Assembly (NCBI GenBank): GCA_051251855.1
Contig: JBPOGI010000001.1
Coordinates: forward strand, 992,001-1,056,000
Length of the DNA: 64,000 bases
Direction of reading: 5' to 3'
Origin: Roseibacillus sp.
Lineage (GTDB): Bacteria > Verrucomicrobiota > Verrucomicrobiia > Verrucomicrobiales > Akkermansiaceae
Both the position numbers and the translations under genes were made by a program. Every line of letters begins with the position of its first letter. The stretch's first letter is position 1. Shown here one piece after another: positions 59,562-64,000 of the stretch. The notes under the pieces are model-generated. The model had not been told where the DNA came from. It did no database searches and was given only the letters and a program-made list of their open reading frames with translations.

Positions 59562-62500
59562 CTACCTCGAAGGGGTGAGTTGGTTGTGCCAGTGTTCGGC
59601 GATTTCGGTGAGGGCGCTTTTGGAACCTGATTTGGAGAAGGCGCTTTGTTGGAGGTCGGAGATTTCTTTGCTGAGGTCGGCGGCCTTTTCGGTGGGGACG
59701 GATGTCTTGAGCTGTTCGAGCCAGTGGAGGAGGCTGACTTCGGTGAGGTTGGAGGGGATGGCTGGACCGGAGACGATTTGTTCGGTGGGCGCGTTTGATT
59801 TCTTGAAGAAGCGCCAGGCGAAGAAGGCGATTGCCACGAGGATGAGGAGGAGAATCCAGGGCCAGATGCGAGGGCCGGTGGATTCGTTGAGTTGAACAGT
59901 CTCGCCAACAGGGAGAAGATCGACGTCTTGATAGCGCTGACGAAGGATGGCGTCTTCTTCGGCGAGAGAGTCGGTTGCGAGTTCGGTGAGGGCGGGGAAG
60001 GTGAACTCTGAGGGGGAGGAGCCTTTGGGCTTGAGGGTGACGCGGTATTCATGGGTGGACAGGGGGGCTCCGTCGTCGGTTTCGGTGGTGAGTTCTTCCA
60101 CTTGAAGTTCGCGGTCATCGATGCTGACGACTTCGAAGCCTTTGGGGGGCATGGTGACCAGTTTATCCAAGGAGGGAACGAGTCCATTAGCGGAGGTTTT
60201 GACTTCGAGTTGCCATTCTTCTTTTTCGGCGGCGGTGCGCTCGTCCAAGGTCATGGTGAGCTTGAGGTCGCGCACGGGGCGAGGGCCTGCTTCGGCTGCG
60301 ACGACGGAGACGTTTGCGGAGCTGATGGGGAGGACGACATGGCCGGAGGTGTCGAGGAAGTCGAGGTCGATTTTTAAGGGAGGGACGGTGTCGGTTTGGG
60401 GGCCTTTCGCTTTCAGGAGGAAGTAGGCGTAGGGGGTGGTTCGCCAGCCGATACGGGGGGAGGTGCGGGATTCGATTTTGTCGGTGTGGAAAGTGAGGGA
60501 GACCACTTCGAAGTTTTCTTCGAGGGCGGCGCGGGAGGCTTTCTCGAACTTGTCGCGGTAGTCTTCGGTGGGGCGGCCGAAATTATAGGAATAGGAGACG
60601 GTGTTTTGATTTTGGAGGTAGCGTTGGAAGCCGCCAGACTCGCGTTCGATTTCGCGGGTGTGATGAATGTTGATGAAAAGTCCGAAGGGCTCGGTGCCGA
60701 TTTGGGCGGAACCATCTAAAGTGGAGACGAGTTCGATTTCGGTGATCAGATCCTGATAGTAGTCGAAGACGGCTTGCGCGGATTCGATTTCTTCGCGATC
60801 GCCGACGATGCCGATAGCGGCTTCGAGATAGCGGTATTTGAGATCGGGAGAAACGTTGGCGAGTCGGGTGTTGAGGGTGCTAGCGAAGCTCTGGTAGTGA
60901 CGTTCGCGGGTCTTATCGTCGGGAAGAGCGTCGAGAGCAGCTTTGATTTTTGCGAACTCGGAGGAGACCGGCATGTGATGATTCTTGAGGGCTTCTAACA
61001 GAGGAGAGCCGAGGGCGGCATAAAACCAAGTCTCATAGACGGCAGAGGATTCGTCGCTTTCTGTCTCCAAGGGCAAGGATTGGGCGTAGAGCTGAGCGGC
61101 ATCTGCAAAGTCGTCGAGGGCGGTTCTCTTGGTGGTGGAGTGGGTAGATTGCGGCTGTAGGGCGGAGAGGTAGTTGGATTCCTCGTAAGTGAGGGCGGCC
61201 AGTTGGGTGAGGAGTTTGGAAGACTTGGGCTCGTTGCCCCAGGCGTTGGCGGTGACTTCGCGGGCCATTTCGTAGCCGGCGAGAACCTGTTGATGGAGTT
61301 CTTTGTCTTTTCGCTTGGTCTTGAATTGCTCCTGGAGTTTGGGATTGGGCCAGAGGGCGGCCAAGTTGATACGCATCTTTTCGATGAGAGAGGCAATGGT
61401 GTCGCCATCGACGGCTTTGATATCGCCGAAGACGGTTTGGAGGGCTTCGACGCGCCAGACTTCAGCTTGGGAGTGAACGGTGATGAAAGCACTGGCGAAT
61501 TCTTCGTTGAAGTTCTCTTCTAGTTTAAGCTCGCGCACGGAGGTCACCAGTTCAGAGAGTTCGACGAGGTTGCGCTCTTGCTTGGAGCGGGTGAGGGGGA
61601 TGGTTTCGGCGCGGTTGTTGTAGCCGTAAAAGTAGGAATAGGAGGAGCGGTAGCGGCTTTGCTGATTGGGGTTGTGGTTATCGGCCCAAACGTCGATGAG
61701 GTTTCTGACGAGTCCTTCGGCGGTATCGGGCTTGTGGGTGGAGAGCTGCTTGATGAAAGGGAAGGCTTTCTGGTGTTCTTTGACCTTGAGAAAGAGGCGG
61801 GGGATTTTTTCAATAAGCTGTAACTGAACGGTCTCGTCGACGGCGGCGATCCACTTGTCAGAGGGCGCGACTTCGATGATGTCGCCAGCGGGGATGGGGT
61901 TGGGTTGCTCGCGATTGTTGTTTTGAGAGTATTGCCGAGAGCCGTAGTATCTGTTGCCGTAGTTATCATACTGCATTTGGGGGCGCATGGAGTCGGAACG
62001 GTCGAGGCGTTGGGTGAGGTCGGCTTCTTTGAGCCAGTTGAGAGCGTAGATGGTGAAGATTTCTTTCCACTCGGGGAGGTCGATTCCGTCGGTGGCGAGG
62101 AGGGCTTCGGCGGCGCTTTTTTGGAGCTTGGCTTGTTGGAGGCGGAATTGGGAATTGCGAATTTGTCCTGCTTGAGAGGCGAGGGTGCCGACGGCAGCGA
62201 GGATGTCAAAGCCTTCGCCTGCGGGGTCGGAGAAGGTCTTGCGCAGCCAGTCTTGACCGGAGCCTTCTTCGAGTTCGGAGACGAGAGAGAGGGCGCGGTA
62301 AAGCGCTTCGCCGCGTTGGTCCATGGGGGCGTTCTCGGTGGACATGACCTGTAAGGAAAGTTCCCAAGCGAACGGGAGGTGCTCTTTACCTAGGTCCTTC
62401 TGGTGGGCTTCGGCGTGGTAGCGAGCGATAACGTTGAGTTCTTTGACTCGTTCGTATTTCTGCGCTTCTTGAACAGGGGGGAGGAAGTCTGCGGCTTGCT

Positions 62501-63281
62501 CGACTTGTCCCGCGTTGAGAAGAAGAGAAGAGGTGCGGAAGCGTTGCTCGGAATCGCTGGCACCGAAGTAGCGGGTGCCGGTCTTGAGTCGGTTGAAGAA
62601 GCTTTTGGGGGCGTCTTTGGAGAGAAGTTTAGCGAGGGACTCGATAGTGGAGACTTCAGGGTCGACTGGAGATGCGTCGGAGAGTGCGAGGACGTCGTCG
62701 GGGCTGAGGTAGTTGTTTTGGTTGTGGGGCTTGGCTCCCATGACCATGACTTCGGGCCTTGGCTTTACTTGAACGGGTTTGCCGAGCTCGGTGAGGAGGT
62801 GGGTGTAAGTCGTTTTGGCGAGGTCTTCGGGGAGGTCGGCGAGGTATTCGCGGACGGCGGTCCACTCGCCGAGGATGACGTTGCTTTGGAAGGTCTCGGC
62901 TGCTTTTTGATAGTCTTTGCGTAGCTCTTCTTTTTTAAGCGCTTCGGGATCGGGGGGAGGCTGTTTTTCGGCGTTGGGATTGGGTGCTGGTGGCACCTTT
63001 TCTTCTTTGGGGGGCTCGGGGTGGCGGCGTTCGCTTTCTTCCTTGAGGATCCCTGAGGGAGTGCGGTCGAACTTGAGCTTGGCTAAAAACTCCTTGCGAA
63101 AGGCTTCGGGGTCTTTCTGTTTGCTGCCTTGGTTTCCTTGGCTGCTACTTGGTTTCGCCCCTTGGGCCTGAGCCTGTTGGGGGTTGTCGAGATTCATGGG
63201 GATTTCGACGCGTTGACCATTGATGGTGATCTGCGAGAGGACGGGCGTGACGAGGAGAAGGAGAGGAAGGGTGAACTTCAT
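59562..63281 (-). CDS. Large exported protein of unknown function with C-terminal membrane anchor (1239 aa)
   Basis: Signal peptide MKFTLPLLLLVTPVLS, Q/P-rich linker, long helical body, beta-rich region, TM IWPWILLLILVAIAFFAW, short tail. Confidence 0.85.
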   Translation of the reverse strand: MKFTLPLLLLVTPVLSQITINGQRVEIPMNLDNPQQAQAQGAKPSSSQGNQGSKQKDPEAFRKEFLAKLKFDRTPSGILKEESERRHPEPPKEEKVPPAPNPNAEKQPPPDPEALKKEELRKDYQKAAETFQSNVILGEWTAVREYLADLPEDLAKTTYTHLLTELGKPVQVKPRPEVMVMGAKPHNQNNYLSPDDVLALSDASPVDPEVSTIESLAKLLSKDAPKSFFNRLKTGTRYFGASDSEQRFRTSSLLLNAGQVEQAADFLPPVQEAQKYERVKELNVIARYHAEAHQKDLGKEHLPFAWELSLQVMSTENAPMDQRGEALYRALSLVSELEEGSGQDWLRKTFSDPAGEGFDILAAVGTLASQAGQIRNSQFRLQQAKLQKSAAEALLATDGIDLPEWKEIFTIYALNWLKEADLTQRLDRSDSMRPQMQYDNYGNRYYGSRQYSQNNNREQPNPIPAGDIIEVAPSDKWIAAVDETVQLQLIEKIPRLFLKVKEHQKAFPFIKQLSTHKPDTAEGLVRNLIDVWADNHNPNQQSRYRSSYSYFYGYNNRAETIPLTRSKQERNLVELSELVTSVRELKLEENFNEEFASAFITVHSQAEVWRVEALQTVFGDIKAVDGDTIASLIEKMRINLAALWPNPKLQEQFKTKRKDKELHQQVLAGYEMAREVTANAWGNEPKSSKLLTQLAALTYEESNYLSALQPQSTHSTTKRTALDDFADAAQLYAQSLPLETESDESSAVYETWFYAALGSPLLEALKNHHMPVSSEFAKIKAALDALPDDKTRERHYQSFASTLNTRLANVSPDLKYRYLEAAIGIVGDREEIESAQAVFDYYQDLITEIELVSTLDGSAQIGTEPFGLFINIHHTREIERESGGFQRYLQNQNTVSYSYNFGRPTEDYRDKFEKASRAALEENFEVVSLTFHTDKIESRTSPRIGWRTTPYAYFLLKAKGPQTDTVPPLKIDLDFLDTSGHVVLPISSANVSVVAAEAGPRPVRDLKLTMTLDERTAAEKEEWQLEVKTSANGLVPSLDKLVTMPPKGFEVVSIDDRELQVEELTTETDDGAPLSTHEYRVTLKPKGSSPSEFTFPALTELATDSLAEEDAILRQRYQDVDLLPVGETVQLNESTGPRIWPWILLLILVAIAFFAWRFFKKSNAPTEQIVSGPAIPSNLTEVSLLHWLEQLKTSVPTEKAADLSKEISDLQQSAFSKSGSKSALTEIAEHWHNQLTPSR

Positions 63282-63322
63282 ACGTTGAGGTAGGAGAATG
63301 TTGTGTTGGAAAAGAGACGTTT

Positions 63323-64000
63323 TTAGCTGCCAGAGCCATCGGGTGGAGGACCGCTGCCTGCTCCGCGAGCGTCTTCGGTTCCTGGCTTTTTACCGGACTT
63401 TCCTGCTTTCGGGCGACCGCCCGAGGAGCAGCCTTGTCATTGGCTGGGGATGGGAAGGCCGTAGAGTTCGGCGGGGTCGATACGTGCGAGGCGGATGGTG
63501 GCTTCGAGGTCGTCGGCGGAGGTCTTGGCGAGTTCGGGATCGGCGGCGGTTTGGGCGAGGAGCTTGTATTCTTGGCGAGCGGCTTCGATTTCGGGCTCCC
63601 ACTCGGAATCGGGGAGGCCTTCGAGCTTCATGAGGTAAGTCATGTAGTACCGCGCATTGGCGAGGGCAGCCCGGGTTTCGTCACGAAGCTGCGGGTCGGC
63701 GTTGGGGTCTTGGTCGAGGACGAGCATGAGTTCAGCGAGTTCTTCGCGGGCTTCGGGGAGCTTCTTGTTGAGCATTTTCGCTTTCGCGATTTCGAGCTCT
63801 ATGCGACGGGCAGTGGTGACCTCTTCTTTGGGAAGTTTGCCCATGGCGGCTTCCCAGCACTTAATGGCTTGAGAGTAGTCCTCGTCGGCAAGAGCGGCTT
63901 CGGCTTTGTTGATGGACCCTTGAGCCTCGTCGAGGTCGAGATGGCTTTGTCCGGGGCCGAAATGCCATGCGGCAAATGCGAGCGGGATGAGGAGCCAGAG
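63323..64000 (-). CDS. TPR-like membrane/secreted protein, 5' end outside window; candidate selenoprotein with in-frame TGA at 63437-63439 (ends at 63437 if not recoded)
   Basis: Frame open from the window edge (LWLLIPLAFAAWHFGPGQ...DYSQAIKCWEAAMG...) to ...LYGLPIPSQ-TGA-QGCSSGGRPKAGKSGKKPGTEDARGAGSGPPPDGSGS-TAA(63325-63323). Confidence 0.75.
63403..63436 (-). promoter_or_regulatory. Candidate bacterial SECIS element
   Basis: UGA-CAAGG-CUGC-UCC-UCGGGC-GGUC-GCCCGA-AA-GCAG: perfect 6-bp upper stem, GGUC loop at +19..+22, 4-bp lower stem. Confidence 0.7.

Follow-up and report, generated by a model that had tools for sequence, protein, structure and literature searches.

Bacterial selenoprotein genes of the fdhF type combine an in-frame UGA codon, read as selenocysteine (Sec), with a short hairpin inside the coding sequence that carries GGUC in its loop, and their homologues have Cys at the Sec position. 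In Escherichia coli fdhF the GGUC lies at positions +19 to +22 after the UGA codon, and the hairpin contains a bulged U. Among membrane selenoproteins, SELENOS and SELENOK are single-pass proteins whose Sec is borne by a disordered tail rich in Gly, Pro and charged residues; both act together with the AAA+ ATPase p97. Here we describe a gene of Roseibacillus sp. that recalls both systems. It lies at one end of a 64,000-nucleotide stretch of assembly GCA_051251855.1 (contig JBPOGI010000001.1, positions 992,001 to 1,056,000; the whole stretch is called the window below), and in its read-through form it would encode a protein of 232 amino acids. As in fdhF-type genes, an in-frame TGA is followed by a short intragenic hairpin with a GGUC loop, and Cys is found at the same column in homologues. 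Unlike fdhF, the product is unrelated to molybdopterin enzymes, the hairpin stands 21–36 nt from the UGA across the family, and no bulged U was seen in it. We put at roughly 85% the probability that the product is a genuine selenoprotein some 232 residues long, with the decoding, architecture and genomic setting proposed below.

The reading frame beyond the TGA

The gene occupies positions 63323..64000 of the window on the minus strand (G000:C1:1055326-1056021). Its first seven codons (MKIALTT) fall outside the window, the start being 21 nt past the end, where these codons would be numbered 64001-64021. The residues up to the TGA (63437..63439, minus strand) read ...AELYGLPIPSQ. The initial annotation, made from the letters of the window, had pointed out that the frame stays open past this codon for 37 further codons and that read-through shortens the gap to the next co-oriented gene (ATG at 63281) from 155 to 41 nt. 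Both statements were borne out: beyond the TGA, which would specify residue 195, the frame continues as QGCSSGGRPKAGKSGKKPGTEDARGAGSGPPPDGSGS up to a TAA at 63325-63323. The TGA opens a U-Q-G-C motif, from the putative Sec195 to Cys198 (63428..63439, minus strand). The tail that follows (63326..63436, minus strand) is predicted to be disordered and consists of a Lys/Gly/Pro-rich linker and a terminal motif conserved in the alignment of orthologues, DARGAGSGPPPDGSGS (63373-63326, minus strand). Its C-terminal tryptic peptide, after the last Arg, is of the GAGSGPPPDGSGS type.

Relatives were sought with the read-through protein in 101 genomes of the taxonomic family. Twenty of them matched (the Roseibacillus genome included), and 19 of the matches are full-length and run across the TGA, covering query residues 1/2 to 231/232. 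One in-frame TGA is present in 10 of these 19 orthologues and none in the other nine, seven of which have Cys aligned with the TGA column (PKQ-C-N(G)C.SGKC), while two distant ones have Gly. A wider scan with one genome per species found relatives encoded at 349 loci, of which the 80 best were examined. All but one of the resulting 99 loci were parsed automatically; L091, missed by the parser, is a Cys form by eye. At the column in question the 98 parsed loci have TGA in 61 cases, TGC in 35 and GGC in two, which after removal of duplicates become 52 TGA, 31 TGC (Cys) and two Gly among 85 unique sequences. The alternation between Cys and TGA that the initial annotation had proposed to look for is therefore present. 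It had also proposed that a TGA private to this genome would speak against the idea, and a codon shared by 52 of 85 unique orthologues is not private. An assembly or sequencing error, or a private nonsense mutation, has in its favour only the general expectation that an in-frame stop in a draft genome is often an error. The same TGA, however, recurs in these 52 unique sequences from independent assemblies. Zero differences were also seen in contigs of four seawater-metagenome runs, although these come from one study, possibly the source of this DNA, and are not independent; we regard this explanation as negligible.

The TGA forms are present in both Verrucomicrobiota and Planctomycetota. Within the former, TGA was found in Roseibacillus, Rubritalea and Oceaniferula (cultured carriers being Roseibacillus persicicus KCTC 12988, Rubritalea profundi SAORIC-165 and Oceaniferula spumae NT6N), and Cys in Haloferula and Luteolibacter; within the latter (Gemmataceae, Pirellulaceae, Isosphaeraceae and others), both forms occur. 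A few contigs are labelled Rhodobiaceae, Alcaligenaceae or Thermodesulfobacteriota; since their sequences nest in the tree among those of the Planctomycetes–Verrucomicrobia–Chlamydiae (PVC) group, we take these labels as mis-binning. On a quick IQ-TREE phylogeny of the 85 protein bodies, the Sec forms stand on deep branches of both phyla, and five Sec/Cys changes are needed, at least two of which are forced by well-supported branches. Every TGA form has Cys at +3 (52/52), and 51 of the 52 have Gly at +2, giving the consensus U-x-G-C.

The post-TGA tail, whose conservation the initial annotation had named as a further test, is common to all 85 unique orthologues, TGA and Cys forms alike, and ends in D[AS]RGAxxGPPxDGxGS followed by a stop. 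Its length varies between 36 and 44 codons among the TGA forms, the differences being in whole codons only. Over the final 16 codons of the tail in the 52 unique TGA forms, the proportion of synonymous differences (pS) is 0.73 and that of nonsynonymous differences (pN) 0.20, a ratio of 0.27, close to the 0.29 obtained for the 16 codons that precede the TGA. Entropy at codon positions 1, 2 and 3 of the tail is 0.55, 0.46 and 1.66 in these forms. Judged by this pattern of substitution, the tail is under purifying selection in the TGA forms.

These observations bear directly on the simplest reading of the locus, in which the TGA is a real stop, the protein has 194 residues, and the conservation on its 3′ side reflects a small open reading frame (ORF), a regulatory RNA, a terminator-like hairpin, or a set of pseudogenes. 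Public gene calls all end the TGA-form protein at 194 amino acids, a G+C-rich hairpin just past a stop can resemble a transcription or translation control element, and a truncated product probably exists in any case, SelB-dependent decoding being never fully efficient. However, all 52 unique TGA forms keep the tail in the frame of the upstream ORF; it matches the uninterrupted tail of the Cys forms residue for residue and has a pN/pS like that of the body, and the TGA column has been kept across two phyla. The hairpin, for its part, is not followed by a T-run and sits within conserved codons, and its interpretation as a terminator was rejected on these grounds. We consider a real stop so improbable as hardly to compete with recoding.

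The hairpin and the selenocysteine machinery

The hairpin UCGGGC-GGUC-GCCCGA, which the initial annotation had placed on the 3′ side of the UGA with GGUC at +19 to +22, is indeed found there, at 63424-63409 with the loop at 63418-63415 (minus strand). It spans 15–30 nt after the U of the UGA, with GGUC at 21–24 nt, that is, at +19 to +22 after the codon, the same offset as in E. coli fdhF. A lower stem, CUGCU/AGCAG, extends the structure to 63403..63431; it occurs in this genome only and was rejected as a part of the conserved element. The 45-nt fold has a free energy of -20.8 kcal/mol (z = -2.93), and none of 200 shuffled sequences folds as well. A hairpin in one genome carries no significance by itself: 865 GGUC hairpins with a stem of at least 5 bp turned up in a crude genome-wide scan, and 69 of these have an open-frame TGA 15–39 nt upstream, most of them plainly spurious. 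It is the conservation of the hairpin in relatives that raises the observation above chance.

When a hairpin was defined as a GGUC loop with at least four adjacent base pairs, it was found in 50 of the 52 unique TGA forms, whereas the 33 Cys/Gly forms have none. Counted from the U of the UGA, the loop begins at 21 nt in 35 forms, at 24 nt in two, at 27 nt in two, at 30 nt in nine, and at 33 and 36 nt in one each. The offset is always a multiple of three, so that GGU-CGN reads Gly-Arg. In the Verrucomicrobiota Sec forms, the Arg codon that builds the hairpin stands in place of the third Cys of the Cys forms. Across the hairpins at least eight different complementary stem pairs are used, including GGGC/GCCC, GCCGC/GCGGC, GGGCC/GGCCC, GCUCC/GGGGC, AGCCC/GGGCU and GCUGC/GCAGC. 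Covariation was assessed on 30 of the 50 hairpins, rows identical or near-identical in the 22-nt window having been dropped. Pairing cells amount to 85.7%, compared with 60.0% in shuffles and at most 45% when the partner strand was slid; in six of the seven stem pairs both sides vary, with 41 compensatory cells, and none of 500 shuffles reaches the observed values. The covariation that the initial annotation had suggested as a test is thus seen in six of seven pairs. In the 35 forms with an offset of 21 nt, the third-position entropy of codons +5 to +8 (TCG GGC GGT CGC) is 0, 0, 0 and 0.19, compared with 1.6–1.9 at equally conserved Pro and Leu codons just upstream. Such frozen synonymous sites reflect selection acting on the RNA and not on the peptide.

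Two peculiarities of the family may be mentioned here. The Gln codon before the UGA (63440-63442, minus strand) is CAA in 34 of the 35 unique forms with the 21-nt offset, and this fixed CAA may reflect a context requirement for Sec decoding. An orthologue in an uncultured Verrucomicrobiales metagenome-assembled genome (MAG; L082:6567-6616) has two in-frame TGAs, reading U-Q-G-C-U-S-G-K, the second of which falls on the column that is Cys in Cys forms of the CxGCC type. A single GGUC hairpin, 36 nt downstream of the first TGA and 24 nt downstream of the second, might serve both. With its invariant GGUC, covarying stem, in-register offsets of 21–36 nt and fixed CAA, the family offers a natural series for deriving the rules of the selenocysteine insertion sequence (SECIS).

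The genome is equipped for Sec insertion. A search for the sel genes, which the initial annotation had recommended, found all of them: selA (376 bits), selB (a SelB winged-helix domain in a 754-aa frame), selD, which has an in-frame TGA of its own, and one tRNA-Sec gene (selC) with the anticodon TCA. The genome's fdhA (...CSRAUHAP...) has a GGUC-loop hairpin at an offset of 21 nt, identical to that of the gene described here, and selD has a GGUCU loop at +35. Within the family sample, selA was found in every genome examined of genera g1 (8/8), g9 (2/2), g11, g12 and g15 (9/9 each) and was not found in g8 (0/9) or g5 (0/9). All 10 genomes with a TGA form have selA, and all nine with a Cys or Gly form belong to g8 or g5. 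In planctomycetes, selA matches strongly (E <= 1e-130) in four of five TGA-form genomes.

On the strength of the conserved codon and tail, the covarying GGUC hairpin and the Sec machinery, recoding of the UGA appears to be a conserved trait of the family. In the mechanism that we propose, the UGA at residue 195 would be decoded as Sec through the canonical bacterial SelB/tRNA-Sec pathway. Decoding would be directed by a short SECIS hairpin of the fdhF type with a GGUC apical loop, located within the coding sequence 15–30 nt past the UGA, and translation would then run through the 37-residue tail to the TAA. Sec is very probably the residue inserted, as far as comparison of sequences can tell.

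Comparison demonstrates continued translation and not the identity of the inserted residue, and in principle an ordinary aminoacyl-tRNA, be it near-cognate (Trp, Cys or Arg) or a suppressor, could read the UGA, or the codon could be recoded in some other way. The fact that no Rfam model matches the hairpin may also be cited in favour of this view. On the other hand, the same apical GGUC follows the UGA of the genome's own fdhA and selD; in the family sample, TGA forms occur only in genera with selA and Cys forms where selA was not found; the residue aligned with the column is Cys, the classical counterpart of Sec; and TGA serves as the ordinary stop in 30 of 35 Cys-form orthologues. In full, the true stops (98 loci, not deduplicated) are TAA in 29, TAG in 28 and TGA in four TGA forms, and TGA in 30, TAA in four and TAG in one Cys form. 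A recoding that does not involve Sec therefore seems to us very improbable.

Several points nonetheless weigh against Sec insertion directed by the hairpin and should be set beside this evidence. The relatives are not independent, the tree having about five Sec/Cys changes, two of them forced by supported branches. Two TGA forms depart from the hairpin consensus: L020 has the GGUC loop with one stem mismatch, and L093 has an AGUU loop on a GCGGC/GCCGC stem. The hairpins were aligned on the GGUC and the occurrence with the longest stem was chosen, which favours pairing somewhat. An Rfam scan of positions 63200-63600, with E values up to 10, returned no SECIS family and only two chance-level matches (Atu_Ti3 and RAGATH-25). 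Finally, one planctomycete TGA-form MAG of unstated completeness (G101) has only a weak selA match (E 4.8e-9).

Architecture and place among selenoproteins

The protein would consist of a membrane anchor, a scaffold resembling tetratricopeptide repeats (TPRs), and a flexible Lys/Gly/Pro-rich tail with the U-x-G-C motif at its base and a conserved D-x-R-G-A-x-x-G-P-P-x-D-G-x-G-S motif at its end. The N-terminal hydrophobic anchor ending in ...AAWHFGPGQ, which the initial annotation had described, was found in the sequence; its part within the window (63947..64000, minus strand) comprises residues 8–19, after which comes a conserved H[FY]GPGQ. An AlphaFold2 model built from 19 orthologues has a mean predicted local distance difference test (pLDDT) score of 80.4. 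It shows a helix at residues 2–20, and eight helices at residues 23–180 with pLDDT above 90 (63482..63955, minus strand); from about residue 190 onwards, in the tail, pLDDT is below 50. Foldseek found no match to the model in the PDB at E <= 0.001; the best rows are all TPR proteins (the TPR domains of STI1/Hop, BamD and YbgF), with E values from 3e-3 to 4e-2 and TM-scores up to 0.79 on the target. Searches of Pfam and NCBIfam with the read-through protein gave nothing beyond a sub-threshold match to BamD (21.9 bits, against a cut-off of 81.4). Precomputed Pfam matches to TPR_19 exist for some Cys homologues and none for the Roseibacillus protein, and a protein-atlas search with a Cys-form orthologue retrieved only unnamed or TPR-like clusters, from Planctomycetota and Verrucomicrobiota. 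The scaffold was expected to be neither a thioredoxin fold nor a molybdoenzyme, and an all-helical TPR-like model with a disordered tail and no Pfam or NCBIfam selenoprotein match is in agreement with that expectation.

The orientation of the protein in the membrane may be approached through charge. The residues preceding the anchor are MK or MR, and the 15 residues past it contain on average 1.14 Lys/Arg and 2.64 Asp/Glu (72 of 85 sequences parsed). This bias mildly favours an orientation with the N terminus in and the C terminus out, and by this reasoning body and tail would, with somewhat better than even odds, face the periplasm. It is a point against the proposed setting that charge bias is the only basis for this topology. 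The protein is probably located in the envelope. The conserved terminal peptide of the tail probably docks on a partner.

Comparison with known selenoproteins brings out both likeness and difference. Thioredoxin-fold selenoproteins with UxxC (Trx, Grx, DsbA-like, TlpA-like and GOS_C proteins) share with the family a U-x-x-C motif, Cys homologues and a probable envelope location. However, the model is all-alpha and TPR-like and places the motif in a segment with pLDDT below 50, and the Pfam/NCBIfam search of the read-through protein gave no thioredoxin-like or GOS_C (NF045500) match. In KCU-star and UXX-star proteins and in the GCUG tail of thioredoxin reductase, a reactive Sec is likewise carried on a flexible C-terminal extension; their Sec lies a few residues from the stop, whereas here a conserved 37-residue tail follows. 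No NCBIfam model of the C-terminal-Sec families (KCU-star, UXX-star) matches the protein. With SELENOS and SELENOK, the protein has in common a membrane anchor, a disordered, basic and Gly/Pro-rich Sec tail, and an AAA+ ATPase (MoxR) in the same system. No homology is claimed: Sec is 38 residues from the C terminus, at the base of the tail, there is a TPR domain, and the tail, being inferred to be periplasmic, would be separated from the cytoplasmic MoxR.

The initial annotation had suggested that the family might be undescribed, and no listing of it was found in the catalogues checked. A May 2026 review of selenoproteins in prokaryotes (PMC13188914) does not list it in the accessible part of its Table 1, and none of the Pfam/NCBIfam models of the families in that table matches the protein. 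Neither the accessible parts of the deep-Sep paper nor the main text of BSepDB refers to any TPR, Verrucomicrobia or Planctomycetes family. The family motifs are absent from the four GOS supplement files, in which GOS_A is an unrelated sequence, and from the accessible part of the BSepDB supplement. Table S9 of PMC4807772 lists a "hypothetical" planctomycete P1 candidate, given without sequence, with a Cys homologue in Rhodopirellula sallentina, and this candidate may belong to the family. Public proteins of the family fall into two sorts, 194-aa "hypothetical proteins" terminating at the TGA and Cys forms of 229–268 aa, some of them named "tetratricopeptide repeat protein"; 59 of the 120 matches listed stop at 84% coverage, including the NCBI entry of Roseibacillus persicicus. 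The evidence supports a selenoprotein family that is missing from the catalogues checked and has a canonical insertion mechanism. Such a family, found in two phyla and built on a membrane-bound TPR protein with a disordered tail, departs from the dominant thioredoxin-fold and metalloenzyme contexts of selenoproteins, and its presence in two phyla suggests that selenium use in marine Verrucomicrobiota and Planctomycetota has been under-counted. Databases systematically truncate it at 194 aa, and one family model could correct annotation pipelines.

The MoxR–VWA operon and possible roles

The genes around the candidate recall the Bat (Bacteroides aerotolerance) operons. Co-oriented genes upstream encode a MoxR ATPase (AAA_3, 6.5e-63), a DUF58 protein, a 280-aa protein without a family, and two von Willebrand factor A (VWA) proteins (Pfam VWA_2/VWA) with three hydrophobic segments each. 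The ATG of the candidate gene overlaps the stop of the upstream gene as ATGA, and we propose that it is translationally coupled through this overlap to the second VWA gene. Directly downstream (59562..63281, minus strand) lies the most constant neighbour of the family, a gene for a 1239-aa protein with a signal peptide, one C-terminal transmembrane segment (residues 1135–1153) and no cysteine. It matches no Pfam family (the BatD model included) and no NCBIfam family; its nearest named Atlas clusters are BatD (score 0.78–0.79), which is a lead and not evidence. Across 80 loci, a homologue of this large protein is directly downstream in 73, VWA genes are upstream in 63–64 and MoxR in 50. The order MoxR–DUF58–VWA recurs in planctomycete loci, and some loci are reduced to the pair formed by the family gene and that of the large protein.

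In gene order (MoxR, DUF58, a protein without assigned family, VWA, VWA, a protein with a transmembrane anchor and TPR, and a large exported protein with a C-terminal transmembrane segment), the locus resembles Bat operons. The VWA proteins have weak NCBIfam matches to Leptospira BatA and BatB, and the model provides the anchor (helix 2–20) and TPR fold (helices 23–180) expected of BatC; the likeness described here is one of architecture. Differences are also apparent: the 1239-aa neighbour is about twice as long as the members of the BatD clusters (462–547 aa), and no Sec or conserved Cys cluster is reported for Bat proteins in the accessible text of PMC3557215 and PMC5700661. A predicted complex of a Cys-form orthologue with the upstream VWA protein, both from locus L069, scored 0.00 against a mark of 0.32, a result that is uninformative on binding. 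According to the available text of PMC3557215, bat mutants of Bacteroides fragilis are partially rescued by reducing agents, a periplasmic complex has been proposed, and the function of Bat proteins "remains elusive"; in that of PMC5700661, the VWA domain of a BatA-like protein of Borrelia is placed in the periplasm. Our literature search found no paper connecting selenocysteine, aerotolerance and MoxR.

As for the role of the motif, Sec195 and Cys198 would form a reactive pair at the base of a tail projecting from a membrane-tethered TPR scaffold. The U/C-x-x-C could be the redox-active selenenylsulfide/dithiol centre of the complex, an external substrate or oxidant, and not the Cys-free neighbour, being its target; we hold this tentatively, as a proposal with not quite an even chance. 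The two-residue site of the Sec forms and the absence of Cys from the neighbour point to such an external target and away from disulfide exchange within the complex. Some facts sit badly with a redox role. The 1239-aa neighbour, being without cysteine, cannot be the dithiol partner. Three Cys are invariant in the Cys forms (C198, C201 and C206 in alignment numbering, C-x(1,2)-C-x-S-G-x-C), whereas 48 of the 52 Sec forms have U plus one Cys only, a difference that a redox role leaves unexplained. Leptospira bat mutants have no oxidative-stress phenotype, according to the accessible text of PMC3557215. Moreover, selA matches are present in all five planctomycete Cys-form genomes, three of them in pieces, so that the Cys form there does not imply loss of the Sec trait. 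In the latter three genomes (G106, G108 and G110, via L083, L094 and L107), selA lies in two to four adjacent pieces, which could be frameshifted assemblies or decaying genes.

The same selenoprotein might instead use its U/C-rich segment as a site for a soft metal (Cu, Zn, Hg, Cd or Fe-S), the tail serving to sequester the metal or to hand it over. The three invariant Cys would fit such a site, as would the presence of three to five Cys in the tail of 31 of the 33 Cys/Gly forms. Among the planctomycete forms, a number are very rich in Cys and Lys, for example CKGCKSGQCKCKGKCK, and the variable C-x-C/C-x-x-C spacing in a disordered segment is untypical of a classical redox CxxC. Metal-binding selenoproteins are known, among them MbdU, CopZ-family and mercuric-transport-like proteins in the accessible part of PMC13188914. 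Conversely, 48 of the 52 Sec forms have only two chalcogens, which would suffice for linear Cu(I) or Hg(II) coordination but not for a tetrahedral site or a cluster, and the operon contains no metal transporter, chaperone or regulator. The contrast between three Cys and U plus one Cys is awkward for a fixed metal cluster too. Metal binding, the main alternative, appears to us unlikely, if worth keeping in mind, and the redox (selenenylsulfide) role is favoured over it.

It is tempting to go one step further and to regard the Sec/Cys tail as a tethered selenenylsulfide arm, the reactive centre of Bat-like MoxR–VWA machines of the PVC group, set beside a Cys-free partner. This is a speculation that we ourselves think improbable. 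If it were true, the arm would sense or detoxify oxidants or reduce targets in the envelope, and the protein would be a bacterial counterpart of SELENOS and SELENOK in which one Sec functionally replaces a three-cysteine cluster. In any event, a poorly understood envelope operon gains its first candidate reactive residue, and the conserved Sec/Cys motif provides a specific, mutable position for probing a redox or metal role of Bat/MoxR–VWA operons.

Among the sequencing runs listed as carrying the stretch, there is no RNA run, and the four DNA runs are uninformative on expression.

Judging from its TGA codons and hairpins, the genome seems to encode many unannotated selenoproteins. Another candidate Sec gene lies about 17 kb past the end of the window (G000:C1:1073305-1074693, minus strand; locus L109:7303-8694). 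In its product, a 463-aa membrane protein, the in-frame TGA falls within a linker rich in Gly and Gln (...EGGPG-U-QGNGQ...). A GGUC hairpin stands at +24, and the conserved C-terminal domain continues past the TGA; a DsbD gene is found just downstream. Homologues occur in 73 of the 101 family genomes, and the TGA in six of nine genomes of the genus, one of which has two. There is no Cys at the TGA column, although a CxxC is found some 20 residues upstream of it in homologues from other genera. Two tandem paralogues of about 1280 aa (C6:420847 and C6:424896, plus strand; locus L110), with FG-GAP, ASPIC/UnbV, AhpC/TSA-redoxin and TPR domains, both contain an in-frame TGA within TGDL-U-SVYW, with a GGUC hairpin behind it at +20; Table S9 of PMC4807772 describes genes of this kind. 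The crude scan further yielded three candidates with a TGA and a GGUC hairpin, at C1:1812084 (plus strand), C10:234380 (minus strand) and C8:392860 (minus strand): a thioredoxin-like protein with PG-U-GPC, adjoining selA, a small exported protein with WGG-U-GGC, and a 395-aa protein with HPAGET-U-NNGIVG.

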